Shown here piece after piece: positions 2,563 through 36,940 of a DNA stretch of 64,000 nt. A program made the position numbers and the translations under genes. The stretch lies in the IMG/VR virus record IMGVR_UViG_3300032087_004567. One strand, given 5' to 3'. The stretch's first letter is position 1; each line of letters starts with the position of its first letter. The DNA is from a virus. The notes beneath the pieces are model-generated. The model was given only the letters and a program-made list of their open reading frames with translations, had not been told where the DNA came from and searched no databases.

Positions 2563-3140
2563 TGGGTAAAGTAGGAGTATTAATTTCTGGTACTGGATCT
2601 AATCTTAAAGCTCTTGTGGATGCTTTAGTCCCAATAGCTTGGGTTGGATCCAACAATCCAGATGCAAAAGGTTTGGATTTTGCTCATAAGAAGAACATCC
2701 ATACCTTTGTGGAACCAAAGATTGCCGAACTTGAAAAGATCTTAGATCATTTTATGAAAGAGGTTGAGTTTTTGGTTCTTGCAGGTTTTATGAGAGTACT
2801 ATCTCCTGAATTTGTGAAGAAGTATCCCAAAAGGATTATAAATATTCATCCAAGTTTGTTACCTGCATTCAAAGGTAAGGATGCTATTCGTAGAGCATAT
2901 GATTATGGTTGTAAAGTTATGGGTGTTACTATCCATTATGTTAATGAGAAAGTAGATGAAGGTGAGATCATTGCACAAGAACCTCTTTGGATTGTGAATA
3001 CAATTTTAAATCATAATGCACAACATACTAATCAAGTACGATATACTTACAAAGAAGTCGAACAACAAGTTCATAAGCTAGAACATAGTATGTATCACAA
3101 AGTCGTTCGAGATATGTTAGGTATTGGTGGTTGGGGATAA
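2562..3140 (+). CDS. purN: Phosphoribosylglycinamide formyltransferase
   Basis: LISGTGSNL, LAGFMRVL, NIHPSLLP, G.TIHYV..VDEG.II motifs. Confidence 0.93.
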   Translation: MGKVGVLISGTGSNLKALVDALVPIAWVGSNNPDAKGLDFAHKKNIHTFVEPKIAELEKILDHFMKEVEFLVLAGFMRVLSPEFVKKYPKRIINIHPSLLPAFKGKDAIRRAYDYGCKVMGVTIHYVNEKVDEGEIIAQEPLWIVNTILNHNAQHTNQVRYTYKEVEQQVHKLEHSMYHKVVRDMLGIGGWG

Positions 3141-3143
3141 GAT

Positions 3144-3293
3144 ATGTTTAGAGTTTATTTTTTTGAAACGGATTGTTTTCATGATGTTACTTTTAAGACA
3201 CTAGAAGATGCAAGAGAGTGTGCAAAGAAAACAGGATATCATGCAAACATTTTTGAAGGTGATAATTATATTGAAACAATTAAGGGAAAATGA
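3144..3293 (+). CDS. Small hypothetical protein (49 aa, not in ORF track)
   Basis: ATG at 3144, open to TGA overlapping next start; fills gap in operon. Confidence 0.55.
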   Translation: MFRVYFFETDCFHDVTFKTLEDARECAKKTGYHANIFEGDNYIETIKGK

Positions 3294-3487
3294 TTATGAA
3301 AATTATAAGTGAATATTTTTTTGAAGATAATGAAAACAAACAAGCAGTAATAGTTGAAGAAGAAAAAGGATACTTCGTCCATATAAAAGAAAATACTAAG
3401 ACTATTAAAATTATAGATGTATCAGATCATTCATTACGATATGCTGAAGATACAGCTGAAAACTATTGCCTAGGTATTGCTAAATGA
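3290..3487 (+). CDS. Hypothetical protein
   Basis: Operon packing; HSLRYAEDTAENY motif typical of T4-like phage small proteins. Confidence 0.65.
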   Translation: MIMKIISEYFFEDNENKQAVIVEEEKGYFVHIKENTKTIKIIDVSDHSLRYAEDTAENYCLGIAK

Positions 3488-3867
3488 AACCTTTTGATTT
3501 TGTTAATAGTATCAATATCACAAAGAAAAACTTAATGAAAGGTAGTTACAATGATGAACTATCAGAGAAGGCGTATATACCCTTTTTAACTAATAGATCT
3601 CTATCATATTTCACAGATACTCTATTATATGCTAATGAAATGAATAGATATCCTACATTAGACAATAAGCTTCAATATGAGTATCTCCTAAATAGTATTA
3701 GAACTAAGAAAAGATTTAGTAAATGGTTTAAAAAAGGAGATGCTAAACAATTAGAATTAATTGCAAAGTATTTAAAAGTCAGTCTACGAGAAGCTAAAGA
3801 GTACCAGAAAGTACTTACCGATAATCAAAAAGAACAAATAGAAAAGCAATTCGAAGACTTAGAATAA
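3484..3867 (+). CDS. gp62: Clamp loader small subunit (T4 gp62-like)
   Basis: PFDFVNSIN, ANEMN, KRFSKW motifs; synteny before regA. Confidence 0.9.
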   Translation: MKPFDFVNSINITKKNLMKGSYNDELSEKAYIPFLTNRSLSYFTDTLLYANEMNRYPTLDNKLQYEYLLNSIRTKKRFSKWFKKGDAKQLELIAKYLKVSLREAKEYQKVLTDNQKEQIEKQFEDLE

Positions 3868-3885
3868 GAATAAGAGAAAGTAATT

Positions 3886-4284
3886 ATGGAACTGTTAGAT
3901 AGTTTAGTTGAAGTGAAGCTCGTTAAGGAAGACGATTTTCTCAAAGTTAGAGAAACCCTTACACGTATAGGCGTCGCTTCAAGAAAAGATAAAATTTTAT
4001 ATCAGTCCTGTCACATACTTCATAAACAGGGAAGATATTACATTGTACATTTTAAAGAATTATTTGCGCTAGATGGCAAGCCAACTAACTTTACCGATGA
4101 TGATAAAGGTAGAAGAAATGCTATTGCTAACTTAATAGCTGAATGGGGTCTAGTACAACTCATTAATCCATCAAAGTCAAAAGATCCAATTGCACCTTTA
4201 TCACAGATTAAAATTCTTCCGCATAAAGATAAAGATGGTTGGGAACTAGTTGCAAAGTATAATATAGGCAAAAAAAGTAGTTGA
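3886..4284 (+). CDS. regA: Translational repressor RegA
   Basis: DDFLKVRETLTRIGVAS, LYQSCHILHKQGRYYIVHFKELF. Confidence 0.97.
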   Translation: MELLDSLVEVKLVKEDDFLKVRETLTRIGVASRKDKILYQSCHILHKQGRYYIVHFKELFALDGKPTNFTDDDKGRRNAIANLIAEWGLVQLINPSKSKDPIAPLSQIKILPHKDKDGWELVAKYNIGKKSS

Positions 4285-4309
4285 TTTAATTTATTGTCTA
4301 TATTATAAT
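4281..4309 (+). promoter_or_regulatory. Sigma70-like early/middle phage promoter
   Basis: TTGATT-17 bp-TATAAT; one of 16 near-identical copies. Confidence 0.8.
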
Positions 4310-4324
4310 TATAGTATATAACTT

Positions 4325-4741
4325 GTGAGGTGTATTATGGCAATGATTTATACTAATACTAGTAGTAGACGTACTAGACGTAAACAACATTTGAAGAATA
4401 AAGCAGCTTATGAAGAGCAGCAAAGAAGCTATGGTAATGATCCTAGAAAAAAATATAAACCTAGTGAAAAAATATCTGGCTTTAGTGTTGTAGGCAATAT
4501 AAATAAGCGTGTAGGTTATGACGATCATGATAAGATTCCTTCTCTGAATCCTAAACAAGTGTCGAGCATGTATAAGACTAAAGTAAAATATACAGGTGAG
4601 ATGGCTGAAAGAGAGAAGAAAGCTCAGGAAGAAATAGCTTACAAAAAAACGTGCGTTGCTTCATTACATAAATCGAACTTTATTTATGTGACGCCAGGGA
4701 TTAATCCTTCCGGTCTCGGACGGAAGAATGAAACTCTTTAA
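4325..4741 (+). CDS. Basic hypothetical protein (likely start 4337)
   Basis: Downstream of promoter; SD gagg before 4337; YTG...IA.LHKSN motif common in T4-like phages. Confidence 0.65.
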   Translation: MRCIMAMIYTNTSSRRTRRKQHLKNKAAYEEQQRSYGNDPRKKYKPSEKISGFSVVGNINKRVGYDDHDKIPSLNPKQVSSMYKTKVKYTGEMAEREKKAQEEIAYKKTCVASLHKSNFIYVTPGINPSGLGRKNETL

Positions 4742-4759
4742 TGAAGAAATTGTAAAACT

Positions 4760-4814
4760 GTAAATGCCCATTTTGGGGTTTACTTATTTTAAACTTGCTT
4801 AAAAGGAGAAAACT
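4760..4814 (+). promoter_or_regulatory. Structured hsp20 5' leader, ROSE-like RNA thermometer candidate
   Basis: Hairpin GTAAATGCCC/GGGGTTTAC, then CTTGCTT directly before SD AAGGAG. Confidence 0.45.
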
Positions 4815-5324
4815 ATGACGTTCGACGACGTATTTCATTTTGGTTCTAAAGACTTAGATAAATTCTTTATAGGTTCTAATAACCCGTTTACAAGAGTAAA
4901 CAAAATATATGATGAGGTGCAAAGATCATCTTATCCTCCATATAATATTAAGAGACTTGGCGATGACAAGTTCTCAATTGAATTAGCTGTTGCAGGGTTT
5001 ACCCAATCAGATATTGATATTGAGGTAGTACCTGAAGAAAACAAATTAGTAGTAAGTGGTAAGAGCGATGATAACAGTTCTGATTACTTACATAGAGGTA
5101 TAGCTAATAGGGCGTTCACAAGATCATTTGCATTAGATGAACATGTTGAAGTAAGATCTGCAGATCTATCTAACGGTATGTTGATAATTAACTTAGAGAG
5201 AATAGTTCCAGAGCATAAAAAACCTAGAAAGATTAAGGTCAACGATGCCATAGAGCACTCCTCCAAGCAGCTACTTACGGAGGATAAAAATGCAGAAATC
5301 AAAACTAAAGAGAAGGTTGCGTAA
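4815..5324 (+). CDS. Small heat-shock protein (Hsp20/IbpA family)
   Basis: YPPYNI, IELAVAGF, YLHRGIA.R.F.R.F.L, A.L.NG.L.I.L. Confidence 0.95.
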   Translation: MTFDDVFHFGSKDLDKFFIGSNNPFTRVNKIYDEVQRSSYPPYNIKRLGDDKFSIELAVAGFTQSDIDIEVVPEENKLVVSGKSDDNSSDYLHRGIANRAFTRSFALDEHVEVRSADLSNGMLIINLERIVPEHKKPRKIKVNDAIEHSSKQLLTEDKNAEIKTKEKVA

Positions 5325-5514
5325 AGTAAACATCTTTCTAAGAAAGTTTATGAGAGCTTTATACAATTCAATTAAACACGCAAGACTTGCCCAGGCAAGA
5401 GTACATATGCATAGATTTGATCAAGACTATGCACAATGGTACTTAAGTCAATCAAAAGATAATTTTGATTTTGAAAAGCGTGAAAGAGAATTAATGTACA
5501 AACGCCTTTTATAA
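5290..5514 (+). CDS. Small hypothetical protein
   Basis: SD ggagg; YLSQSKD..DFEKREREL motif; followed by terminator. Confidence 0.65.
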   Translation: MQKSKLKRRLRKVNIFLRKFMRALYNSIKHARLAQARVHMHRFDQDYAQWYLSQSKDNFDFEKRERELMYKRLL

Positions 5515-5532
5515 CTTTCATATCACCTAAAT

Positions 5533-5566
5533 AAAAGAGAGGTCCCTAAAAAGACCTCTTTTTTTC
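5533..5566 (+). terminator. Intrinsic terminator
   Basis: AGAGGTC/GACCTCT hairpin followed by T tract. Confidence 0.75.
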
Positions 5567-5724
5567 AATTAACTCAGCATTAATGAAAACGTCTTAATTA
5601 TCCAAGACACTATATTATTGTAATGCTTTATAGCGCTATTTCGCTTAGTTATAAGAGGGGATAATAAAAACAATATAGTATACTAAAGTCTGATAAGATT
5701 AGCGCATAAGAAAGGAGAGTCCTT

Positions 5725-5898
5725 ATGAATACTCACGTTTATTCGCTAGATTATTATTTTACTAAGTTAAAGAAGTTAGAAAATATTGTACATGATTTAC
5801 AGACCGAGATAGAGGTGACGAGAAGCAAACTAAAATCTCAGACTGATAGTACAAAATTTGATAAACCGAGAGTACGAATAGGTCCAGATGATGTATAA
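5725..5898 (+). CDS. Small hypothetical protein (57 aa, not in ORF track)
   Basis: SD AAGGAG, ATG 5725 to TAA 5898. Confidence 0.55.
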   Translation: MNTHVYSLDYYFTKLKKLENIVHDLQTEIEVTRSKLKSQTDSTKFDKPRVRIGPDDV

Positions 5899-5914
5899 CT
5901 TAATGGAGATATAG

Positions 5915-6256
5915 ATGGTGCAAAAGAAGTTGCAAAAAGGTTCAGAGTATGCAAAGTATGATTTGGATGGAGATGGTATTGTGAGTGATGAGGAATTAGA
6001 TATGGATGAAAAGATGTTAAGACTTCAAGATTTAAAGTCTGATATCGAAAATGAAGATAAGAAACAAGATTCGCAGCGACAAATGGCATGGATGGCTTTA
6101 ATAGGAATGTTATTCTATCCTCTTGTCACTATTGCTGCTGATTATTTTGGTTTAAAAGCTGACATATTAGCTTCAATGGCTGATTTGTATTTTATTGCTA
6201 GTGCTGGTATTGTTGCAGCATTCTACGGAAAAGAAGCATATCTCGGTAGAAAATAA
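5915..6256 (+). CDS. EF-hand-containing two-TM membrane protein
   Basis: DLDGDGIVSDEE canonical EF-hand loop; two C-terminal hydrophobic segments. Confidence 0.65.
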   Translation: MVQKKLQKGSEYAKYDLDGDGIVSDEELDMDEKMLRLQDLKSDIENEDKKQDSQRQMAWMALIGMLFYPLVTIAADYFGLKADILASMADLYFIASAGIVAAFYGKEAYLGRK

Positions 6257-6262
6257 TACCTG

Positions 6263-6291
6263 TTGATTTTATTATGTTCGTATGATATAAT
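6263..6291 (+). promoter_or_regulatory. Phage promoter; predicted leaderless transcript for DNA polymerase
   Basis: TTGATT-17-TATAAT, ATG 6 nt after the -10 box, no SD. Confidence 0.75.
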
Positions 6292-6297
6292 TGTGAT

Positions 6298-8847
6298 ATG
6301 AGTAAATTTTATACAAGTGTCTTTATGAATCGCGGTGATGTATTGCTACGTGGTTATGAGAACGGTAAGCGAGTACAACATGCAATACATTACAAACCAT
6401 ATCTTTTTGTTGGTTCAAGGATAAAAGATACTGATTATCGAACTATCAAAGGTAAGCCTGTTGATAAAATAGAGTTTGGTAGTGTATATGAAGCACGCGA
6501 GTTTTTAAGAAAGTATAAAGGTGTAGATGGAATGGACATCTACGGTCTGACTAATTTTATCTACACCTTTATTCATGATCATTATCCGGGCACAATCGAC
6601 TACGACCCTAAACTAATCTCCGTTGTCTCGATCGATATTGAGACGTCCGCCGAAGGAGGTTTTCCAGATATTCAATCTGCTGATAAAGAAATAACTGCCA
6701 TTACTATTAGTAAAAAAGGCAAAATGGTTGTGCTTGGATATAATGATTTCGAAATACCCCAAGGTGAAGAAGATAACATTACCTATTTGAAATGTGAATC
6801 TGAATCAGATCTACTTAATAAGTTTATAAAGGTATGGAGATCCACACAATTTATTCCTGATGTTGTTACTGGTTGGAACTGTGAGTTCTTTGATATGCCC
6901 TACATTATAAATCGTATTAGTAGAATTATTGGACCTGAAAGTGCAAAAAGACTATCGCCTTGGGGTATAATATCGTATCGTGAAGTAGAGATAGCAGGTA
7001 GACAATATAGTATTCCTGAGATAGTAGGTATTACTATCTTAGATTATATGCAGTTGTATAAGAAGTTCTCTTTTACAATGCAAGAAAGTTACAAATTAGA
7101 TTACATTGCCCAGGTCGTCCTTGGTGAGCGTAAACTTGATTATGATGCTCTTGGTTATGCTAACTTAGATGAGTTCTATAAAGGAAATTATCAAAAGTAC
7201 ATTGAATATAATATTCAGGACGTGCGACTGGTAGATAGATTAGAAGATAAACTTAAATTCATAGAACAGGTGTTCGCCCTTGCCTATGATGGAAAGACTA
7301 ATTATCTAGATACGTTTACCTCAGTACGATCTTGGGACATGTATATCCATAATGAGTTACTATCTAAGAAGATAGTTATACCTCAGTTTGATCCATCAGA
7401 AAGAGCTAAAGATAATCCTATTGAAGGTGCCTATGTTAAAGAACCTAAAGTAGGTATGCATAAATGGGTTGTATCTTTTGACTTAAATAGTCTATACCCT
7501 CATTTGATCATGCAATATAATATCTCACCTGAAACCTTTGTAGATACTATATCTTCTCTGAGTGTGAAAGATGGAGTGGATAAGATACTTAATGGTGCAT
7601 TGAATGATCCTGCAATAAGAAATGAAATGGAATCACAAAATGTAACTGTTGCTGCAACCGGTTGTATGTTTGATAAAGACTATCAAGGCTTTTTACCTCA
7701 GATGATGCAACGACTATATGATGATAGGGTAAAGTTTAAGAATCAGATGATCGAGGCTAAGAAGAAGTATGAGAAAGAAAAAACATATGAACTAGAAAAG
7801 GAGATAGCACGTTGTCATAATATGCAGCTTGCTAAAAAGATTCAGCTTAACTCGGTTTATGGTGCATTAGGTAACAAGTACTTTAGATGGTATGATCCTA
7901 GATATGCTGAATCGATTACTAAGTCCGGTCAGTTATCTATTCGTTGGATGGAGAATAAAATAAATGGTTATCTGAATAAAGTACTTAAGACTGATAATGA
8001 AGATTATGTAATAGCTGTTGATACTGATTCGATGTATATAAACTTAGATGAGTTTGTACAAAAGACTTGTGAAGGTAAAACTACAGAGGATATAGTTAAG
8101 TACTTAGATAAAGTTTGTAATGATGTCTTTGAACCTTTCATTGATAGATGCTATGAAGAGTTAGGTAAGTATGTTAATGCCTATGATCAGAAGATGAAGA
8201 TGAAAAGAGAGGCAATAGCTGATAAAGGTATATGGACTGCTAAAAAGAGATATATTCTTAATGTAAGAAATAACGAGGGTGTTCAATATAAAGAACCTCA
8301 GTTAAAGATTATGGGTATTGAGGCAGTTAGATCTTCTACTCCTGCTATAATTAGACAAACGATTAAAGATGCATTGAAACTAATTATGACTAAGACTGAA
8401 GATGATGTAATTGATTTTATTGCACAGCAACGAGAAGACTTTCGTGGTAGACCTTTTGAAGATGTAGCCTTTCCAAGAGGTTGTAAAGAGATAGAAAAAT
8501 GGATGGATAATAGTACCAGTATAAAAGTATATAAGTCTGGTTGTCCTATTCATGTGAAAGGTGCTATACTATATAATCTTTTATTAGAACAAAAGAAGCT
8601 AACTAATAAATATGAGAAGATAAACAGGGGTGAGAAAATAAAGTTTAGTTATCTTAAGATGCCTAACTTTATTGGAGAACATGTAATTAGTTCACCTGAT
8701 AAATTACCTGAAGAGTTTGAATTGAATGAGTTTATAGATTATGATATGCAATTTCAAAAGTCCTTCCTTGACCCTTTAAAAACTATTCTTGATGTCATAG
8801 GTTGGGAAACAGAACGACGTAATACATTGGAGAATTTTTTCGCATGA
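6298..8847 (+). CDS. gp43: Family B DNA polymerase (T4 gp43-like)
   Basis: ExoI DIET, SFDLNSLYP, KIQLNSVYG, DTDS, KKRY motifs. Confidence 0.98.
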   Translation: MSKFYTSVFMNRGDVLLRGYENGKRVQHAIHYKPYLFVGSRIKDTDYRTIKGKPVDKIEFGSVYEAREFLRKYKGVDGMDIYGLTNFIYTFIHDHYPGTIDYDPKLISVVSIDIETSAEGGFPDIQSADKEITAITISKKGKMVVLGYNDFEIPQGEEDNITYLKCESESDLLNKFIKVWRSTQFIPDVVTGWNCEFFDMPYIINRISRIIGPESAKRLSPWGIISYREVEIAGRQYSIPEIVGITILDYMQLYKKFSFTMQESYKLDYIAQVVLGERKLDYDALGYANLDEFYKGNYQKYIEYNIQDVRLVDRLEDKLKFIEQVFALAYDGKTNYLDTFTSVRSWDMYIHNELLSKKIVIPQFDPSERAKDNPIEGAYVKEPKVGMHKWVVSFDLNSLYPHLIMQYNISPETFVDTISSLSVKDGVDKILNGALNDPAIRNEMESQNVTVAATGCMFDKDYQGFLPQMMQRLYDDRVKFKNQMIEAKKKYEKEKTYELEKEIARCHNMQLAKKIQLNSVYGALGNKYFRWYDPRYAESITKSGQLSIRWMENKINGYLNKVLKTDNEDYVIAVDTDSMYINLDEFVQKTCEGKTTEDIVKYLDKVCNDVFEPFIDRCYEELGKYVNAYDQKMKMKREAIADKGIWTAKKRYILNVRNNEGVQYKEPQLKIMGIEAVRSSTPAIIRQTIKDALKLIMTKTEDDVIDFIAQQREDFRGRPFEDVAFPRGCKEIEKWMDNSTSIKVYKSGCPIHVKGAILYNLLLEQKKLTNKYEKINRGEKIKFSYLKMPNFIGEHVISSPDKLPEEFELNEFIDYDMQFQKSFLDPLKTILDVIGWETERRNTLENFFA

Positions 8848-16595: not shown

Positions 16596-16617
16596 TATTT
16601 ATATGTCGTTATAAATA
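16596..16617. promoter_or_regulatory. Back-to-back divergent T4 late promoters
   Basis: TATAAATA on minus (16596-16603) and plus (16610-16617) strands. Confidence 0.7.
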
Positions 16618-25239: not shown

Positions 25240-25416
25240 TTATTGTGGAAGTGGCGGTATCTTTGAACGTGTCTTATCTAAAGGATCTGATCTCAATTTC
25301 TTTCCACCATCACCATCGGCGTCTGCATCACCCTTGCGCAGCTTTCCACTACGTGTAAAATGATAACCCTTTGGTGCTGATTTAACTTCTTTGATAAACT
25401 CTTGAAATTTAAGCAT
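25240..25416 (-). CDS. Putative internal head protein with capsid-targeting leader (58 aa, not in ORF track)
   Basis: MLKFQEFIKE resembles T4 CTS MKTYQEFIAE; SD aagga; basic mature part. Confidence 0.65.
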   Translation of the reverse strand: MLKFQEFIKEVKSAPKGYHFTRSGKLRKGDADADGDGGKKLRSDPLDKTRSKIPPLPQ

Positions 25417-29566: not shown

Positions 29567-29574
29567 TATAAATA
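29567..29574 (+). promoter_or_regulatory. T4 late promoter
   Basis: TATAAATA upstream of internal-protein cluster. Confidence 0.75.
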
Positions 29575-29601: not shown

Positions 29602-29856
29602 ATGAAAAAATTTAATCAATACGTAAAAGAAGATTTAGATTTAATCTTAGAGTTTAATAAGGTTGCAATGAGTGCAGCTAAAGATGCAATTGCAAAGAAG
29701 ATGAGCCATAAACAAGCACAAGACCATGTTCATAATACAGTAATGAAGCATAGTAAGTCTAAGTCACCACAAGGTGCAGGTGGTGCTGTTTCAAGGATAA
29801 GAATCAATCAAGCATTAGATAAGGCTGACGATCATTTAGCTAAGCATTATGGCTGA
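29602..29856 (+). CDS. Putative internal head protein
   Basis: CTS-like MKKFNQYVKE, second ILE site, Glu-free basic mature part. Confidence 0.65.
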   Translation: MKKFNQYVKEDLDLILEFNKVAMSAAKDAIAKKMSHKQAQDHVHNTVMKHSKSKSPQGAGGAVSRIRINQALDKADDHLAKHYG

Positions 29857-30639: not shown

Positions 30640-31833
30640 ATGTTAAATTTTAAATTTTTTCTTACAGAGGCAGTATCAAATGAATCTAAATTAACACATT
30701 TAGAGCATGCTGAAGATCATGTAATTAATTCTGGTGAGAAAGGATTCTCTCATGCATTTCATAATTTAAAAGATGTGCATGATAAGCTATCTGGTAAACA
30801 TAACAATACAACTATTACATCAAAATACGATGGTAGTCCTTCTATTGTATTTGGACATCATCCTAAAACAAAAAAGTTCTTTGTAGGAACTAAATCAGTA
30901 TTTAATAAAGATCCAAAAATTAATCATACAAATGATGACGTAGATAAAAATCATGGACATGCACCTGCACTTGCACATAAATTAAAACATGCATTAAAAC
31001 ATCTACCAAAAGTTACCCCTAAAGGTAAAATATATCAAGCTGATCTAATGCATCATGGTGTTAAATCAGATACTAACAAACATGGAGATGTGGAGCATAG
31101 ACATGGTAAACTTCATTTTAAGCCTAATACCATTAGTTATAGTACTCATAGTCATAGTGATGAAGGAAAGAAAATAAGTAAGTCAAAGATTGGAATAGTA
31201 CCTCATACAGAATATAAAGGTCATGATTTAACTTCGATGAAAGCACATTATAATGCTGATGTATCTAAGATGCATAGTCATGAACATGTTCATGTAATAT
31301 CACCACACTTTGATCATAAGAAGGTAAAGTATACAGAAGAACATAAAAAAGCATTTCATAAACATTTGAATGCTGCAACAAAGAGTTTTAATAATGCACA
31401 TAGAGATTTTCATAAGCATGTTGAACCACATACAACACATTTAAAGACATATATTAATCATACTATACGTCATGATACTAAACCAAATATTAACGGATAT
31501 AAGAATCATTTAAGTAGACATTATAATAAAAAAGCAGATGCTGTAAAAACAGATGCTGCAAAACAACGACATCTTAACGTATTAGGCCAACATCATGCAC
31601 ATGTAGATAAACATGTTAATCATTTCAAATCTACATTAAGTATGCATCATCATTTACAACATGCAAAGAATACATTAGTAAACGCACTTAACTCTCATAC
31701 TAAATACCATCATCATATTGCTGGTATTAAGACTAAACCAGAAGGATATGTTGTTTCTCGAAATAATAGACCTACTAAATTAGTACATAGACATGAGTTT
31801 TCTAGGGCAAATTTTTTAAGACAAAGTAGTTGA
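30640..31833 (+). CDS. His-rich RNA/DNA ligase-like nucleotidyltransferase with capsid-targeting leader (DUF6267-like)
   Basis: MLNFKFFLTE leader; motif I SKYDG, motif IV PEGYVV, motif V TKLV; about 60 His in 397 aa. Confidence 0.6.
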   Translation: MLNFKFFLTEAVSNESKLTHLEHAEDHVINSGEKGFSHAFHNLKDVHDKLSGKHNNTTITSKYDGSPSIVFGHHPKTKKFFVGTKSVFNKDPKINHTNDDVDKNHGHAPALAHKLKHALKHLPKVTPKGKIYQADLMHHGVKSDTNKHGDVEHRHGKLHFKPNTISYSTHSHSDEGKKISKSKIGIVPHTEYKGHDLTSMKAHYNADVSKMHSHEHVHVISPHFDHKKVKYTEEHKKAFHKHLNAATKSFNNAHRDFHKHVEPHTTHLKTYINHTIRHDTKPNINGYKNHLSRHYNKKADAVKTDAAKQRHLNVLGQHHAHVDKHVNHFKSTLSMHHHLQHAKNTLVNALNSHTKYHHHIAGIKTKPEGYVVSRNNRPTKLVHRHEFSRANFLRQSS

Positions 31834-31858
31834 TTTAATTTAGGAATTATCATATAAT
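31830..31858 (+). promoter_or_regulatory. Phage promoter, predicted leaderless transcript
   Basis: TTGATT-17-TATAAT, ATG at 31865 six nt downstream. Confidence 0.75.
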
Positions 31859-31864
31859 AATAAT

Positions 31865-32488
31865 ATGAAGACTTTAAAAGAATTTAGACAACAATTACAA
31901 GAAAAGGTAAAGTCACTTCATGCATTTGACTTAGATGATACTGTATTTAAAAGTCCTCATCTTAAAGTACATGTTAAAAACGAACATGGTAAAAGAGTTA
32001 AATCATTAGATACACATCAATTTAGTCATCATAGTCAAAAGCCTTTACCTAAAGGTCATAAGTATGACTTTAGTGATTTTGCATCATCAAAGAAATTTCA
32101 TCAGCATGCAAAACCTATTCATAAAATGATTAGTAGAATGAGATTGCATACTGCAAATAAAAATAGTAAAGTTATTATTAGTACTGCAAGAGCTAATATG
32201 GATGATAAGCATAAGTTTTTACACACTCTTAAAAAACATGGTATTAATACTAAAAAAGTTCATGTAGTTAGACATGGAGATATGAAAGGTGGTTCTACTG
32301 GTGAAAAGAAAAGACTTACCTTTAGTGGATATATTAAAAAGCATAAAGTAAAGGATGCACATTTTTACGATGATGATAAGAATAATTTAAAGCATGTTTT
32401 ATCATTAAAGAAAAAACATCCCAATACTAGAATTTATGGCCATCATGCACAATCAGATGGCTCAACAAAACCTTATAGTGGAGATTAG
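31865..32488 (+). CDS. His-rich HAD-superfamily phosphatase with capsid-targeting leader
   Basis: MKTLKEFRQQLQE leader; FDLDDT, STAR, K, FYDD HAD motifs. Confidence 0.75.
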   Translation: MKTLKEFRQQLQEKVKSLHAFDLDDTVFKSPHLKVHVKNEHGKRVKSLDTHQFSHHSQKPLPKGHKYDFSDFASSKKFHQHAKPIHKMISRMRLHTANKNSKVIISTARANMDDKHKFLHTLKKHGINTKKVHVVRHGDMKGGSTGEKKRLTFSGYIKKHKVKDAHFYDDDKNNLKHVLSLKKKHPNTRIYGHHAQSDGSTKPYSGD

Positions 32489-32491
32489 ATT

Positions 32492-32638
32492 ATGGCAAAA
32501 AAATTTGGTGTTACAGTAGTAATTGATCACGTAAAAAAGAAAACAAGTATTAGTGGTAATCATAGTATGTGTAAAACAGCTACTATGAATAAAAGTAAAA
32601 AACGTAGTTATAAAAGATATAGAGGACAAGGTAGATAA
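32492..32638 (+). CDS. Small basic conserved T4-like protein (48 aa, not in ORF track)
   Basis: Ends MNKSKKRSYKRYRGQGR; precedes PAAR gene. Confidence 0.7.
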   Translation: MAKKFGVTVVIDHVKKKTSISGNHSMCKTATMNKSKKRSYKRYRGQGR

Positions 32639-32955
32639 TGCCAGCAGCAGCAAGAGCAGATGGAGTTGATTCAGTAGATAGCCCAGATGGAACTGGTGAT
32701 AAATGTTTATCACCTACAACCCAGGCAACCGATACAGGATCAGGAGATGTGTTTATAAACGGACATGGTGCAATACGATTATTAACAGATAGTTGTACAC
32801 CTCATTCAGGTCCAGGTTGTGTAACGCATGCACCAGTACTTACTTCAGCTAGTCCAAACGTTTATGTTAATGGTAAAGGTGCTGGTAGAAAAGATGATCA
32901 ATATGCAGCACATGTTATTACAACTGGATCAGGAGATGTGTTTATAAATGGCTAG
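32638..32955 (+). CDS. PAAR-motif baseplate spike tip (gp5.4-like)
   Basis: MPAAAR, GSGDVFING repeats, His/Cys metal ligands. Confidence 0.85.
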   Translation: MPAAARADGVDSVDSPDGTGDKCLSPTTQATDTGSGDVFINGHGAIRLLTDSCTPHSGPGCVTHAPVLTSASPNVYVNGKGAGRKDDQYAAHVITTGSGDVFING

Positions 32956-33673
32956 AAATTATCTTAATAATGAATTTATAAAGGTTGTAAGAGGATTTGT
33001 ACAAGGTGCATATTCTGTAAATAAGTTTGGTTATAATCCTGCAATTCCAACTAATGCATTTGAAACAGTTTGGGATGGATCAAATTTATACACTTACATT
33101 TCAACAGCTAGTACAGCAACTGTTACTTCGTCTAATACAGCTGCCGATAATGGTGGTACAGTTAAAGTTTCTGGTTTAGATGCTAACTATAATTTAGTAG
33201 ATGAAGTATTAACTATTGGTGGTGCTGCTGGATCAATTAATTTTTATAGAGTTTTCAGAGTAGAACTGTTATCATCTACTACGGCTGATACAAATGTTGG
33301 TACACTTACTGTTACTGTTGATAGTATAGCGGCTGCTATTGTGAGTCCTGAAAGAGGCCAAACATTAATGGCATTATATACAATTCCTGCTGGTAAAAAA
33401 GGTTACATTGTACAATTAGATATAGCTAGTAGTGCAAGTGGTGAAATTGATGTGACCTTACTTACGAGAAATGGTTCCAGTAATGTATGGGCAACAAAAG
33501 AATTTTTAACCATTAGAGGTGGTTTTAATGAAAAGAATTTTATATTACCCCTAGAAGTAAATGAAAAGACTGATATAGAAGTAAGAGCTAAATCAAGTGC
33601 AACTGCTGCTATAAGTTCAGGATTTGAAATGATAGTTATAGACGTTCCAGTTGTAGCGCCGAGTATATACTAA
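32948..33673 (+). CDS. Virion structural protein (putative)
   Basis: VNKFGYN, ETVWDG, GLDANY, QTLMALYTIPAGK. Confidence 0.55.
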   Translation: MARNYLNNEFIKVVRGFVQGAYSVNKFGYNPAIPTNAFETVWDGSNLYTYISTASTATVTSSNTAADNGGTVKVSGLDANYNLVDEVLTIGGAAGSINFYRVFRVELLSSTTADTNVGTLTVTVDSIAAAIVSPERGQTLMALYTIPAGKKGYIVQLDIASSASGEIDVTLLTRNGSSNVWATKEFLTIRGGFNEKNFILPLEVNEKTDIEVRAKSSATAAISSGFEMIVIDVPVVAPSIY

Positions 33674-33975
33674 TGAAACCAGGAACAGATTTTTTAAGAA
33701 ATTTAGCAGTAGCATGTGTACCTTTACTTCTTGCTGCACTAGGCTATCTTTTTACTAATGCATTAACATTACATGATAAAGTAAGAGTATTAGAACAAAA
33801 GATGTCAATACTAATTGATATGGATAATAAGATTATTCCATCACCTGGTAATGCTATTGCAAGATTAGAATTAAAAGAACAATTATTGATAGAAAAAAAT
33901 GAGATTGATAAGAGAATTCATATCTTAGAATATCATATCGATAAATTGTTAAAGGAGAAAGACTCTAAAGAGTAG
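33673..33975 (+). CDS. Membrane-anchored coiled-coil protein
   Basis: N-terminal TM. Confidence 0.55.
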   Translation: MKPGTDFLRNLAVACVPLLLAALGYLFTNALTLHDKVRVLEQKMSILIDMDNKIIPSPGNAIARLELKEQLLIEKNEIDKRIHILEYHIDKLLKEKDSKE

Positions 33976-33978
33976 AAT

Positions 33979-33986
33979 TATAAATA
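33979..33986 (+). promoter_or_regulatory. T4 late promoter
   Basis: TATAAATA. Confidence 0.75.
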
Positions 33987-33998
33987 TAACATACCTAG

Positions 33999-36662
33999 AT
34001 GTTAGGCCAAGGCAAACCCCTAGAGGAAAATATGGATAAAGAAGAAAAGAAAGTAGTCGATAAAAAGACTACTAAAAATAATAAAAAGAGCGAAATAGTG
34101 GTCGCACCAGAACTCAATAAAGTTGAGGAAGCAAAAGGAAAAGAATCTACAGGTGTTCTTTCATTTGGTAGATTTAACCCACCAACAACCGGTCACGAAA
34201 AACTATTAGACAAAGTACATAGTGTTGCAAAAGAACATAATGCAATGGCACATGTCTATGCATCACACACAGAAGGAAACGCAAAGAATCCTTTACCACA
34301 AGAAAAGAAGATTGGTTATCTTAAAAAGGTAGCACATAAAGATGTTAATGTGTATGGCTCATCAAAAGAAAAACCAACTATACTACATGCTGCAAAAGAT
34401 TTACATGATCATGGTCACAAGCATTTAGTTGTTGTTGCCGGTCAGGATAGAGTAGATCATTTTCATTCCTTATTAAACAAATATAACGGCCATAAAGATC
34501 ATTATAATTTTAGTTCTATTAAAGTTGTATCATCAGGTGATAGAGATCCAGATACAGAAGGAACAAAAGGTATATCAGGAACTAAAATGAGAGCACATGC
34601 AAGAGCTGGCAATCATAACGAATTTAAAAAAGGTTTACCTAAAGCATTACACCCACATGCAAAAGAAATAGCAAATCATATCAAGTCAATAAAAGAAGGA
34701 TTGCATGAGGAGTTAATTGAGGCTGCATTAGATATTGTTCAAAGAAGAAAAAGAGCAATGGCATTAAGAAGACGTATGCCTAGAATGCAAAGAAGAAGAA
34801 TGCTATTAGTTAAACGTTTTGCCGATCAAAAGAAACTACAAACTAGGGCGCGTAAAGTTGCAAGACAATTAGTTAGATCAAGAGTTGCAGGTAAAAGAGG
34901 TGCTGAGTATCATAAATTAACTCCTGCTGCAAAACAAGAAGTAGATAAGAAACTAGAGAGTAAAAAGAAACTAATTAACCTAGTAGCTAAAAGAATATTT
35001 GCTAAAGTAAGAAGAAGAGAGGCTGAAAGAGTACAAAGAGCAAGAGGTGCAAAACCAGCACAAAAAACTAAACTTACTTTAAGTCAAGAGTATGATAATT
35101 TAAATAGCTTGTTTGAGAAAGTATCTACAAAAGTAAGACAAGACAAAGATATAGCAGATAGAAAAGGTACACAACCGGCAAAGTATCATAAAGGTTTAGC
35201 ACCATCAACTAAAGCTGCTAGAGATGCCCAGTTTAAAAAACAAGCTAAAATGGATGACAAGAATCCAGCAGCATACAAACCAGCACCAGGTGATGCAACT
35301 GCAAAAACTAAACCATCAGTGTATACAAAAATGTATAAAGATATGTTTGGTGAAGTTTTAAACTATGATACGTTTAATTCTTTATTTGAAAAAGTTGCTG
35401 ACGAAACATTAAAAGAATTAGGTCCAAGAAGAAGAGCTAGGAGAGTTGGTTATTATCCTAAACCTAAAAAACCTTTACCTAAAGTATCACAAGTTAAAAA
35501 TATAAATCCAGAAGAAGAAATAACTGAAAAGTCTATGGAAGCTTTAAAATCAAAAGCATCTAAATCAGGTTATTCTTATAAGACACTTAAGAAGGTTTAT
35601 GATAGAGGTGTTGCTGCATGGAAGACAGGTCATAGACCAGGTACTACACCACAGCAATGGGGTTATGGTAGAGTAAATGCATTTATTGCAAAACAAAAAT
35701 CAGGTAAGAAGTTAGATCATGATACTGATTTAGCTAATGAGTATATACCTGAACAAGCTCAACAAAATTATAATACACCAGCTGCAGATCATAAAGCTGA
35801 TAAGATATATCCATATCAAGCTGCAATAAAAGATTTAGATTTAAATACTAAGAATAGAAATAAGACTATTAAAGAATATGATTATGGTCCAGCTAATCCA
35901 GAATCAGAAGAGCATACTAAAATGTATTGGGAAAAGAAAGCTGACTTATGGGGCTGTTCTATTGAGATGGTTAAGACAATGAGATGTATGAATTGTGCTG
36001 CTTTCGATCAGAAACCTCAAACATTAAGGTTAATGGCAGATGGTATTGGACCAGATGGAATGAAAATAGTTAAGAATGCCAATTTAGGCTTTTGTGAATT
36101 ATTCGAATTTAAATGTGCAGGGAATAGAACTTGTGATGCATGGGTAGGAGGAGGACCTCTTAAAGAGTCTGAGTATATACCAGAAAGAGGAAGTGACTAT
36201 TTACGATTAGCAAATGTCTCTATGAAAAAAGGAGATATGAAAAAAGCTATTATGTATAGAAGAGCTGCTGCAGCTGCTGAAAGAGGGGATCAAACAACTC
36301 TTCAAGCAGTACTACAACAGATTAGAAATCTAGCAGGTAGTGGTACGATACATCATGAAAGTAAACAATTAGAAGAATCATTTATTGTCGACCGTTCAAG
36401 TGGTTATAGTGTAACCTATACAGCAAAGGATTTAGGTATACAAACACAAGGTGGTTTTGCTTTACATCCATCAGTTATAGATGAAATGGAAGAAAATTTT
36501 ATGGATGGTAAGAACCCACAAGATAAAGGTGATATGGCAAGACACGGACTTAAAGGTAAATCTATAAGTCAGTTAAAGAAGATAAGATCATCTGATTCAG
36601 CATCACCAAGAAAGAAACAATTAGCACATTGGTATATTAATATGCATAAGGGTAAGAAGTAA
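33999..36662 (+). CDS. Multidomain polyprotein-like head protein with N-terminal NadM/cytidylyltransferase-like domain
   Basis: FGRFNPPTTGH and ISGTKMR motifs; domains separated by xxE linkers; likely start 34032. Confidence 0.75.
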   Translation: MLGQGKPLEENMDKEEKKVVDKKTTKNNKKSEIVVAPELNKVEEAKGKESTGVLSFGRFNPPTTGHEKLLDKVHSVAKEHNAMAHVYASHTEGNAKNPLPQEKKIGYLKKVAHKDVNVYGSSKEKPTILHAAKDLHDHGHKHLVVVAGQDRVDHFHSLLNKYNGHKDHYNFSSIKVVSSGDRDPDTEGTKGISGTKMRAHARAGNHNEFKKGLPKALHPHAKEIANHIKSIKEGLHEELIEAALDIVQRRKRAMALRRRMPRMQRRRMLLVKRFADQKKLQTRARKVARQLVRSRVAGKRGAEYHKLTPAAKQEVDKKLESKKKLINLVAKRIFAKVRRREAERVQRARGAKPAQKTKLTLSQEYDNLNSLFEKVSTKVRQDKDIADRKGTQPAKYHKGLAPSTKAARDAQFKKQAKMDDKNPAAYKPAPGDATAKTKPSVYTKMYKDMFGEVLNYDTFNSLFEKVADETLKELGPRRRARRVGYYPKPKKPLPKVSQVKNINPEEEITEKSMEALKSKASKSGYSYKTLKKVYDRGVAAWKTGHRPGTTPQQWGYGRVNAFIAKQKSGKKLDHDTDLANEYIPEQAQQNYNTPAADHKADKIYPYQAAIKDLDLNTKNRNKTIKEYDYGPANPESEEHTKMYWEKKADLWGCSIEMVKTMRCMNCAAFDQKPQTLRLMADGIGPDGMKIVKNANLGFCELFEFKCAGNRTCDAWVGGGPLKESEYIPERGSDYLRLANVSMKKGDMKKAIMYRRAAAAAERGDQTTLQAVLQQIRNLAGSGTIHHESKQLEESFIVDRSSGYSVTYTAKDLGIQTQGGFALHPSVIDEMEENFMDGKNPQDKGDMARHGLKGKSISQLKKIRSSDSASPRKKQLAHWYINMHKGKK

Positions 36663-36940
36663 TGTTATCATTTAAAGAATTTAGAAATATAGAAGAGGCA
36701 GAATATCAAGGTAGAAAAGTATCTTTAGGTAAGCCATTTAGAACACCAGGTGGTCCTAAAAAGTCTGCTGTATATGTTAGAAATGAAAAAGGTAATGTAG
36801 TAAAAGTTACTTTTGGAGATCCTAATATGAAGATTAAGAAAAATATTCCTGCTAGAAGAAAATCATTCAGGGCAAGACATAATTGTGATAACCCTGGACC
36901 TAAAACAAAAGCAAGATATTGGAGTTGCAAGGCATGGTAA
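36662..36940 (+). CDS. Putative internal head protein (conserved KSFRARHNC...YWSC family)
   Basis: CTS-like MLSFKEFRNIEE; basic domain. Confidence 0.7.
   Translation: MLSFKEFRNIEEAEYQGRKVSLGKPFRTPGGPKKSAVYVRNEKGNVVKVTFGDPNMKIKKNIPARRKSFRARHNCDNPGPKTKARYWSCKAW

Follow-up and report, generated by a model that had tools for sequence, protein, structure and literature searches.

The analysed window is the whole stretch of 64,000 nucleotides of viral DNA, which derives from an uncultured marine T4-like myovirus; its positions 30,640 to 36,662 belong to a block of putative head-cargo genes and encode three enzymes on the forward strand. The first (30640..31833, 397 aa) is a DUF6267 protein with the covalent nucleotidyltransferase (RNA/DNA ligase) fold, in which K62-x-D-G, E368-G, K380 and R384 occupy conserved columns and a helical bundle is inserted at residues 233-350. 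Its AlphaFold2 model has a pLDDT of 94.7 and the top structural matches are exclusively RNA/DNA ligases (Z 8.8-5.5). The second enzyme (31865..32488, 207 aa; phrog_415) is a HAD phosphatase of the DDDD/class B acid-phosphatase type, with the motifs D22xD24, T107, K149 and D169-D170 intact in the alignment of homologues; its model (pLDDT 88.8) matches AphA and 5'-nucleotidases in Foldseek (E = 3e-4). The third is an NMNAT/cytidylyltransferase-like (HxGH) domain, here called the NTase domain (34155..34706), which matches PF01467 with 28.3 bits (cut-off 21), phrog_3041 and phrog_395. It comprises residues 53-236 of a basic, polyprotein-like ORF of 887 aa (33999..36662) that furthermore contains Arg/Lys-rich linkers, DUF5824 and a Cys-rich module. 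Judged by the conserved motifs, all three enzymes are catalytically intact. The Pfam DUF6267 match (E = 3e-99) and thousands of homologues show that the frames are real genes, and an assembly artefact is excluded as at least nine studies have marine metagenome runs that contain the same DNA (91-97% of sampled 31-mers).

The ligase-fold protein starts with the leader MLNFKFFLTE (30640..30669, forward strand), which follows the pattern of the T4 capsid-targeting sequence (CTS): positions 4 and 7 are aromatic, position 8 is Leu and position 10 is Glu. It agrees with T4 MKTYQEFIAE (PMC9026906) at these four positions, is conserved across the family and is disordered in the model (pLDDT <50, residues 1-13). 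The HAD phosphatase leader, MKTLKEFRQQLQE, resembles MKTFKEF of T4 IPI, and both leaders match the T4 CTS in outline. ORF 33999 has no such short leader, and its sequence suggests a longer propeptide ending in V-E-E. Leaders of this kind are also found on an 84-aa protein (29602..29856, forward strand; CTS-like MKKFNQYVKE; 7.1% His, 2.4% Glu), on a Lys/Arg-rich (25%) protein of 92 aa (36662..36940, forward strand; MLSFKEFRNIEE; 1.1% His) and on a basic ORF of 58 aa on the reverse strand (25240..25416; MLKFQEFIKE, a near-exact T4 CTS; 1.7% His). The small Lys/Arg-rich leader-bearing proteins have 1-2% His, and the 1.1% of the 36662 protein shows that the leader alone brings no histidine enrichment. 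The T4-type late-promoter-like site TATAAATA is present on the forward strand at 29567..29574, where it heads the first cargo block with a distance of 28 nt to the downstream ORF 29602, and at 33979..33986, 13 nt upstream of ORF 33999. Copies directly precede both cargo blocks, with seven in the window compared to 17.4 expected. A gp21-type protease (PF03420, E = 1e-36) is encoded in two relatives whose DUF6267 proteins are 53-65% identical. The original prediction that the enzymes are packaged is thereby supported as probable: the T4-type leaders, the gp21-type protease of the relatives and a cyanophage homologue detected in virions (that of S-SCSM1, see below) make packaging plausible, and the ligase-fold and HAD proteins are plausible capsid cargo.

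Recounted from the translation, the ligase-fold protein has 60 His (15.1%) and 14 Glu (3.5%) in 397 residues, the HAD phosphatase 23 His (11.1%) and four Glu, two of which follow the leader of 13 residues, and the NTase domain 21 His in 184 residues (11.4%). Thus, every His and Glu count of the original prediction was reproduced. Binomial tails against a background of 2.2% are 2e-31, 3e-10 and 1e-9, respectively. The enrichment is confined to these three enzyme domains: the remaining approximately 700 residues of ORF 33999 contain just 12 His (approximately 1.7%), the median of the other window ORFs is approximately 2%, and every other real gene among the 86 window ORFs of at least 80 aa has 7.1% or less. 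The replication enzymes show 0.8-3.4% His (gp43 1.2, UvsX 0.8, gp41 1.7, primase 2.1 and NrdA 3.4), in line with the original claim that neighboring enzymes lack the bias. It had also been stated that the histidines are spread over the fold instead of forming a tag, and this is borne out. Per 20-residue bin, the variance/mean ratio of the His counts is 0.74 for ORF 30640, 0.35 for ORF 31865 and 1.08 for the NTase domain, the longest run across the three enzymes is HHH, no tags are present, and His pairs at i+1 to i+4 are not in significant excess, with a slight, non-significant surplus at i+2 and i+4. In the ligase-fold protein, CAT accounts for 59 of the 60 His codons, in line with the genomic G+C content of 30%. 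The ligase-fold and HAD proteins lack Cys and lie at the low end of their families in Glu, while the NTase domain is normal (4.9%). No published description of such His-rich, leader-bearing cargo enzymes was found in the literature.

The motif scan found no [LIV]xE in the mature ligase-fold and HAD domains and none between residues 45 and 230 of ORF 33999, where the NTase domain is flanked by V-E-E (42-44) and by I-K-E, L-H-E and L-I-E (231-241). In both families, [LI]xE is 4-5 fold under-represented in mid- and high-His members and the reversed motif is not depleted: the observed/expected ratio falls from 0.86 in low-His members to 0.23 and 0.20 in those with high His, while the controls give 1.3-1.7 for Ex[LI] and a rise to 1.9-2.7 for [LI]xQ. 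In T4, an Asp at the cut position was reported to block processing (PMC9026906). After phylogenetic correction the link between His content and [LI]xE avoidance vanishes (r = -0.05; paired test not significant).

Across homologues, with or without a leader, the His content forms a continuum from approximately 1 to 16% in each of the three families, at the extreme of which the three domains are located. This partly refutes the tie between leader and enrichment: some homologues that seem to lack a leader have 8-11% His, and many of those that carry one have 1-3%. Across phages, the His contents of the DUF6267 protein and the NTase domain covary (Spearman 0.87, n = 42; independent contrasts r = 0.71, p = 1e-5, n = 29), against a flat background of 1.5-2.2% in the other proteins of all loci. 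Stenotrophomonas phage DLP_6 breaks the covariation with 12.1% in the NTase domain and 3.4% in DUF6267. Histidine was gained mainly at the expense of Leu, Ile and Phe and not of Glu: the contrasts of His with Leu/Ile/Phe give r = -0.65 and the slopes for the hydrophobic residues sum to approximately -0.84 per 1% His, while His and Glu are essentially unrelated among 123 family representatives (Spearman -0.13; contrasts r = -0.02) and high-His homologues retain 5.5% Glu. Net positive charge rises weakly with His (contrasts r = 0.23, p = 0.01). In low-His homologues, the columns that hold His in the window are hydrophobic or Tyr (approximately 18), small polar (11) or acidic (10). With surface and core approximated from alignment columns, approximately 13 of 53 non-ancestral His fall where low-His homologues have a hydrophobic or aromatic residue, which indicates that not all of them are on the surface. 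In a set of 40 close homologues, Glu is lowest in this phage; where it has lost Glu, the residue is now Asp (four columns), Lys (two), His (two), Thr, Val or Asn (one each). Only five of 21 phage-specific His replace acidic residues (two Glu, three Asp). The proposed replacement of surface acidic residues by His thus fails, and with it most of the original explanation of the His excess. As for the proposed escape from a Glu-specific prohead protease, the mature ligase-fold and HAD domains are indeed free of [LIV]xE.

Our best guess, held tentatively, is that these enzymes are capsid cargo and that histidine is a selected trait which tunes their charge and stability. It is fairly likely that the enzymes would be loaded into the prohead through the T4-type capsid-targeting leader, that a gp21-type protease would trim them after [LI]-x-Glu, that the trimmed enzymes would be injected along with the DNA, and that their mature domains were purged of the [LI]-x-Glu motif. 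More tentatively, selection would have favored histidine in large cargo enzymes, in contrast to the small Lys/Arg-rich internal proteins. The histidine side chain is titratable: at about pH 7.5-8 it would carry no charge when free in solution but would take up a proton inside a polyanion, e.g., packed DNA or the acidic scaffold core. Combined with a reduced hydrophobic core, this might allow the enzyme to bind, to stay in the head in a loosely folded state, to pass the tail and, once in the host, to let go of the DNA and fold again; the level of enrichment may be set for each phage lineage by something common to the co-packaged enzymes. The replacement of hydrophobic residues by His leans toward a role in stability or pH response. 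However, the high-confidence model argues for a normal fold, and packaging clearly does not need histidine, as T4 IPI-III, Alt and the S-SCSM1 homologue have 0.7-2.1%.

Among the alternatives, the most probable one, although unlikely, is that histidine serves a job shared by the enzymes in the host cytoplasm and not packaging, such as general acid/base or regulatory chemistry in a pathway common to them (RNA/DNA end-healing and sealing, NAD+ salvage) or adaptation to the internal pH of the host. This would agree with the restriction of the enrichment to enzyme domains among the leader-bearing proteins, with the frequent fusion of the covarying ligase-fold and NTase domains in one protein and with the His-rich homologues that apparently lack a leader. 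However, the active sites of the three folds are unrelated, the catalytic residues are conserved whatever the His level, the same motifs being kept in low-His homologues, and the extra His extend over the whole folds including the inserted helical bundle; replication and nucleotide-metabolism enzymes of this phage acting in the same cytoplasm have 1-3% His.

Next in rank, and doubtful, is a role in metal binding, in which the dispersed His would bind Zn, Ni, Co, Cu or Fe, resulting in cross-linking of the cargo into a condensate inside the head, inactivation until release or delivery of scarce metal to the host. With 11-15% His the potential capacity is very high, the trait is common to three co-located enzymes and co-evolves, and the marine habitat is metal-poor; in addition, about a dozen His columns conserved in the His-rich clade could form sites, and the small surplus of pairs at i+2 and i+4 points in the same direction. 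No pair spacing is significant, however, and the absence of tracts or clusters known from metal-storage proteins, with under-dispersed counts, leans against classical metal storage, as does the lack of Cys in the ligase-fold and HAD proteins. DLP_6 is a soil phage with an equally His-rich NTase domain, so that the trait does not depend on a marine habitat, and metal binding leaves the loss of hydrophobic residues unexplained.

A non-adaptive origin by relaxed constraint on dispensable accessory genes together with a local bias toward CAT codons is improbable. Close relatives at 60-70% identity vary continuously from 7.8 to 12.8% His, many window-specific His occupy variable columns and CAT predominates, all of which would fit such drift. 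But the bias is limited to a few domains next to normal genes and within an otherwise normal ORF, unrelated domains remain correlated after phylogenetic correction, and each of about a dozen His columns is retained by 60-96% of the His-rich members, which share <50% identity. Moreover, the catalytic motifs are intact in this large family, on which purifying selection is clear, and many of the substitutions to His (from Lys, Ser, Ala, Gly or Glu) require two nucleotide changes. Least probable is the exchange of surface Glu/Asp for His to evade the Glu-specific prohead protease and to lower the negative charge in dense DNA: motif purging, low Glu in this phage and the Asp block in T4 would suit it, but as a cause of the His excess it is largely refuted by the absent His/Glu trade, by T4 cargo and the S-SCSM1 homologue with normal Glu and 1-2% His, and by the fact that avoiding the motif takes few substitutions and not 50 His.

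Among His-rich metal-binding proteins, Hpn and the His-rich regions of HypB, UreE and SlyD share the very high His content. Their His occur in tracts or clusters within short or disordered regions, whereas here they are evenly scattered over well-predicted enzyme folds without significant clustering. Compared with ATP-dependent RNA ligases, the DUF6267 model aligns best with 5cot (Naegleria NgrRnl/Rnl5; Z 8.8 over 185 residues), followed by the ligase domain of fungal Trl1 (7.9 and 7.8), T4 Rnl1 (7.4) and Rnl2 (7.2), and keeps K-x-D-G, E-G and the late Lys/Arg pair. These Z scores are middling, however, the solved ligases show no match to DUF6267 at the sequence level, and the bundle of approximately 120 residues separates the core from motifs IV/V. 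The HAD superfamily also includes the phosphatase domain of T4 Pnkp, the end-healing partner of these ligases, and a HAD (DDDD) phosphatase gene lies here 3' of the ligase-fold gene; in difference to Pnkp, no kinase domain is seen here and the HAD model matches AphA and 5'-nucleotidase III instead.

NMNAT-like/cytidylyltransferase proteins were detected by mass spectrometry in purified cyanomyovirus virions (S-SCSM1 ORF91, S-CREM2 ORF154, S-CBWM1 and S-SZBM1), for which the authors considered carry-over of abundant proteins a possibility; neither a leader nor a compositional bias is described there (PMC9602691, PMC10665884). The S-SCSM1 protein (PMC9602691) is 37.6% identical to the window NTase domain over 88% of the domain (profile E = 3.5e-62), has the same type of leader (MKSFLQFLKE) and is encoded among other virion-protein genes, but it contains 0.7% His and 7.8% Glu. 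In T4, the CTS leaders of IPI, IPII, IPIII and the packaged enzyme Alt are removed by the gp21 prohead protease. The window shares with T4 the genes for gp43, UvsX, gp41, gp61 and NrdA, the N-terminal leader of approximately ten residues with an aliphatic residue at position 8, the late-promoter-like sites, the gp21-type protease (in relatives) and small Lys/Arg-rich leader proteins beside the enzymes, as the IPs beside Alt. As in each IP, the single [LI]xE of the ligase-fold protein is located at the leader. Packaging and cleavage are predicted from the genes here, and IPI-III and Alt have 1.0-2.1% His and 5.7-8.4% Glu compared to 11-15% His in the enzymes of the window; where the T4 cargo enzyme is an ADP-ribosyltransferase, the putative cargo here comprises a ligase fold, a HAD phosphatase and an NMNAT-like enzyme.

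Composition counts over the 86 ORFs of the window single out three proteins. The ligase-fold DUF6267 protein of ORF 30640-31833 (397 aa) contains 60 His (15.1%) and 14 Glu, the HAD phosphatase of ORF 31865-32488 (207 aa) contains 23 His (11.1%) and 4 Glu, two of which lie after the leader, and the NMNAT-like nucleotidyltransferase (NTase) domain at residues 53-236 of the polyprotein-like ORF 33999-36662 contains 21 His in 184 residues (11.4%), with 12 His in the ~700 residues outside this domain. None of the other credible genes exceeds 7.1% His, and the T4-like replication enzymes of the window reach 0.8-3.4%. Against a background of 2.2% His, the binomial tails of the three proteins are 2e-31, 3e-10 and 1e-9. 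The His and Glu counts of the original prediction were thereby reproduced exactly, and its statement that neighbouring enzymes show no such bias agrees with the values for the replication enzymes. CAT accounts for 59 of the 60 His codons of the ORF 30640 gene, the usual choice at 30% G+C. The window DNA was found in marine metagenome runs of at least nine independent studies with 91-97% k-mer share, which argues for a real and widespread phage sequence and rules out an assembly artefact.

The His residues are evenly distributed (variance/mean 0.35-1.08 in 20-residue bins) with a maximal run of HHH, in agreement with the earlier description of dispersed residues that do not form a tag, and the pair-spacing test revealed no significant His-pair spacing in the His-rich proteins. 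Metal binding by dispersed His is a less likely explanation of the enrichment. The metal-storage or chaperone type of His-rich protein is disfavoured, as its tracts or clusters are absent and the residues are under-dispersed.

The window encodes gp43, UvsX, gp41, primase and NrdA and is therefore assigned to a T4-like myovirus. The best gp43 matches are cyanomyoviruses with ~52% identity, and a megablast search with 12 kb in 50,697 phage records gave no match, so that the phage is without close cultured relative. P-HM2 has the DUF6267 and cytidylyltransferase genes as a syntenic pair. The stretch that separates the HAD from the NTase gene (32638-33975) holds an insert of a PAAR-motif gene, a phrog_8198 gene and a small membrane-like ORF; three related contigs (L003, L005, L008) have neither this insert nor a HAD gene at that position. 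Two other related contigs encode further His-rich proteins just upstream of DUF6267 (L007 8465-10001, L009 8910-10004), one of 137 aa with 13.9% His and others of 336/364 aa with 8.6-9.9% His that start with MKQFKELRE. None of these matches Pfam. In a Pfam search of related loci, four additional proteins that are His-rich or carry a leader were without a match.

ORF 30640 belongs to Pfam DUF6267 (E = 3e-99), a family with more than 5,000 metagenomic members. Among 77 diverse homologues, K62, D64 and G65 of motif I and E368 and G369 of motif IV are kept in at least 90%, while K380, the motif V Lys, and R384 are invariant; ORF 30640 carries every one of these conserved residues (K62-x-D64-G65, E368-G369, K380, R384). 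In its AlphaFold2 model (pLDDT 94.7, leader disordered) a helical bundle of ~120 residues is predicted to be inserted in the ligase fold. A wide structural search with VIA-align returned RNA/DNA ligases as 10 of the 15 top matches (Z 8.8-6.1, 168-204 aligned residues), led by NgrRnl (Z 8.8), Trl1 (7.9 and 7.8), T4 Rnl1 (7.4) and Rnl2 (7.2), followed by DNA ligases. Foldseek against the PDB gave no match at E <= 0.001 for this model, its top rows being DNA ligases at E = 0.08 or worse, and a PDB sequence search with DUF6267 and HAD profiles gave chance-level matches only. Since the Z-scores are middling, the case rests on fold and motifs jointly; motif conservation and the best structural matches together identify ORF 30640 as a predicted covalent nucleotidyltransferase of the ligase fold.

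For ORF 31865, the HAD motifs I-IV (D22xD24, T107, K149, D169-D170) are invariant in 10 homologues. Its model (pLDDT 88.8) matches the class B acid phosphatase AphA (E = 3e-4, probability 1.0) and also resembles 5'-nucleotidase III and MDP-1; no Pfam or NCBIfam model scored above threshold. Motifs and modelled fold thus predict a HAD phosphatase of the DDDD or class B acid-phosphatase type. The NTase domain of ORF 33999 is matched by PF01467 at residues 56-199 (28.3 bits, cut-off 21) and by phrog_3041 and phrog_395 'cytidyltransferase', and it contains G-R-F-N-P-P-T-T-G-H and thus the (H/T)xGH motif. It scores far below the NMNAT equivalog cut-offs (TIGR01526 20.5 bits vs 341, TIGR00482 18.7 vs 112), so that 'NMNAT-like' denotes resemblance only, and it is a predicted HIGH-motif nucleotidyltransferase that weakly resembles NMN adenylyltransferases. 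A Cys-rich module with several C-x-x-C-like spacings is found at 35940-36150 (residues ~650-715) of the otherwise Cys-poor polyprotein.

The His content varies widely within each of these families. In DUF6267, sampled by 123 representatives (one per 50%-identity cluster), the domain covers a continuous range of 1.3-15.8% with the protein of the window as maximum, while NTase domains have 0.6-14.1% and HAD homologues 1.5-12.4%. In 42 phages or fusion proteins with both domains, the His contents of the ligase-fold and NTase domains vary together (Spearman 0.87), also by independent contrasts on the DUF6267 tree (r = 0.71, p = 1e-5, n = 29). Irrespective of the His level of the enzymes, the remaining ORFs of these loci have a median of 1.5-2.2% His. 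The small leader-bearing, Lys/Arg-rich proteins of these phages have 1-2%, a range that also applies to the basic part of ORF 33999 outside its NTase domain. At least five switches between high (>9%) and low (<4%) His were found on the tree, and about a dozen His columns are occupied in 60-96% of the other His-rich members (at least 8% His) and in less than 20% of low-His members. From this co-variation, the flat background, the kept His columns and the low-His small proteins it follows that the His trait is a property of the enzymatic cargo, with a level set by each lineage, and bears signs of selection. A function that the enzymes share in the cytoplasm and drift are less likely explanations. 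An exception to the co-variation is the cultured soil T4-like Stenotrophomonas phage DLP_6 (L014, KU682439), which has the same gene pair at 3083-6974: its DUF6267 protein, with the leader MMKFTQFLAE, has 3.4% His and its 722-aa 'cytitidyltransferase' carries an NTase domain with 12.1%. DLP_6 shows that the trait also occurs outside the marine habitat, and this soil phage offers a tractable model.

As for what His has replaced, the original prediction held that surface acidic residues were replaced; as a replacement of Glu by His, this reading is largely refuted. Across DUF6267, His and Glu are not significantly related (rho = -0.13), independent contrasts gave r = -0.02, and just two of the 21 His that are unique to this phage relative to 39 homologues at 60-70% identity replace Glu, the others replacing Lys (4), Ser (3), Asp (3), Ala (3), Gly (2) and further residues (4). 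The depletion of Glu itself was borne out in that this phage has the lowest Glu among its close relatives, but the lost Glu mostly became Asp. His instead increases at the expense of Leu, Ile and Phe and, to a lesser degree, of Asp, Tyr, Trp, Arg and Asn; independent contrasts gave r = -0.65 (p = 5e-16) with hydrophobic content and r = +0.23 with net charge. In low-His homologues the 60 His columns of ORF 30640 hold on average ~14 hydrophobic residues, 4 Tyr, 11 small polar, 10 acidic, 7 basic and 6 amide residues and 7 His, and in 13 of the 60 columns hydrophobic or aromatic residues make up at least 56%. The comparisons thus show a lineage-tuned and selected exchange of largely hydrophobic, aromatic and mixed polar positions for a titratable residue.

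A link between His and the leader was rejected. Leader-bearing and apparently leaderless DUF6267 members both cover the full His range, and the NTase family means are nearly equal (6.2% with leader vs 5.4% without). Apparently leaderless DUF6267 members with 8-11% His exist, with gene starts taken as predicted, which loosens the originally supposed tie of enrichment to the leader to the extent that these starts hold. It is likewise no general rule that leader-bearing proteins are His-rich, given the small Lys/Arg-rich leader proteins. Nor is His content tied to packaging: the virion-detected S-SCSM1 homologue of the NTase domain has 0.7% His and 7.8% Glu, the P-HM2 gene pair 1.0% and 1.6% His, and T4 IPI-III and Alt 1.0-2.1% His and 5.7-8.4% Glu. 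The leader pattern is loose, a match to UvsX being an obvious false positive.

Escape from a Glu-specific prohead protease, the second part of the original reading, fared differently. The [LIV]xE motif is entirely absent from the mature ligase-fold and HAD domains; the NTase region lacks it at residues 45-230, with V-E-E on one side (42-44) and three sites on the other (231-241). Relative to shuffled sequences, the observed/expected ratio of [LI]xE falls from 0.86 (DUF6267) and 0.85 (NTase) in low-His members to 0.46 and 0.23 at mid and 0.23 and 0.20 at high His, whereas no such fall is seen for the reversed motif (1.3-1.7), and [LI]xQ increases to 1.9-2.7. The depletion fits exposure to the Glu-specific prohead protease. 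Despite the strong class trend, His as its cause was rejected, since the link vanishes under independent contrasts (r = -0.05) and is absent in a paired test; His and [LI]xE avoidance therefore share clades, not cause.

In T4, head targeting depends on positions 4 and 7 of the capsid-targeting sequence (CTS), whose positions 8 and 10 (Glu) direct the cleavage (PMC9026906). In NC_000866, IPII and IPIII start with MKTYQEFIAE and IPI with MKTFKEF. The start of ORF 30640, MLNFKFFLTE, matches the CTS at all four positions (F4, F7, L8, E10). ORF 29602 has the leader MKKFNQYVKE, and the leaders of ORFs 31865 and 36662 are variants of slightly greater length that end in L-Q-E and I-E-E; ORF 33999 is without the short-form leader. 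An isolated basic ORF of 58 aa on the minus strand (25240-25416) starts with MLKFQEFIKE, a near-exact T4 CTS, and its sole [LI]xE is located at the leader. Similar leaders are found on most DUF6267, HAD and NTase homologues and on several other genes in related contigs. The head genes lie outside the 64-kb window; a gp21-type protease (PF03420, Peptidase_S77, E = 1e-36) is encoded in two related contigs with DUF6267 proteins 53-65% identical, and PF03420 was not found in a third that is 85% complete. The T4 late promoter TATAAATA is under-represented, with 7 copies in 64 kb vs 17.4 expected, and putative late promoters stand directly upstream of the cargo blocks of ORF 29602 (29567-29574) and ORF 33999 (33979-33986). 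The remaining copies are located at 16596/16610, around divergent tail-fibre genes, and at 2837, 4498 and 46243.

The 'NMNAT' protein of S-SCSM1, detected in virions by mass spectrometry (PMC9602691), is a homologue of the NTase domain of the window with the same type of leader (MKSFLQFLKE); it is annotated as a virion protein and surrounded by other virion proteins. NMNAT-like proteins recur in cyanophage virion proteomes (PMC10665884). Leaders, the protease of relatives, the placement of TATAAATA and this virion homologue give good grounds to infer, as originally proposed, that the enzymes of the window are packaged in the head. The last ~55 residues of the 887-aa ORF (36480-36659; D-G-K-N-P-Q-D-K-G-D ... 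R-H-G ... Q-L-A-H-W) also end P0279, an unrelated, apparently leaderless HAD homologue, and this shared C-terminus may be a second, C-terminal module for cargo targeting or anchoring. Another HAD homologue (P0275, 323 aa, 12.4% His) has a leader, then an extra N-terminal domain with H-E-x-x-H and then the HAD domain, an order that suggests modular cargo fusions.

The His-rich enzymes thus very probably ride in the head. In the proposed mechanism, His would reduce the core hydrophobicity of the cargo enzymes and its charge would be switched on only within a polyanion, i.e., the acidic scaffold or packed DNA. Charge and thinner core could then aid loading, loose storage and tail passage, followed by release and refolding in the host, while small internal proteins would simply rely on Lys and Arg. 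Packaging combined with a tuning of charge and stability by His is a tentative reading that falls slightly short of an even chance, and the switch itself is less probable. It is rather unlikely that dispersed His and loss of hydrophobic core constitute a general, tunable design rule for large T4-like head-borne enzymes, protonated, loosely folded and DNA-bound in the head, deprotonated, released and refolded in the host cytoplasm, with a per-lineage 'dial' for all enzymatic cargo. Such a dial would explain why His content co-evolves in unrelated folds.

Phage-injected proteins act ahead of any phage gene expression and are therefore prime candidates for counter-defence. To our knowledge, few are known outside T4, N4, P1 and giant phages. 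Together with its relatives in metagenomes, which number in the thousands, the locus suggests that it is routine for T4-like phages of marine and fresh waters to carry nucleic-acid or nucleotide enzymes in ready-made form, and that in some lineages a striking, sequence-readable His signature marks enzymatic cargo. If His reflects the physical chemistry of storage and ejection, it would provide a design rule for protein payloads of T4-based delivery vehicles and make injected effectors recognisable from sequence alone. It is also unusual in evolution for unrelated domains of a single virus to change their composition in concert. A literature search found no relevant paper on DUF6267, 'cytitidyltransferase' or His-rich packaged phage proteins. 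Capsid targeting by the CTS and the packaging of enzymes such as Alt are classical, and NMNAT-like proteins of cyanophage virions have likewise already been reported.
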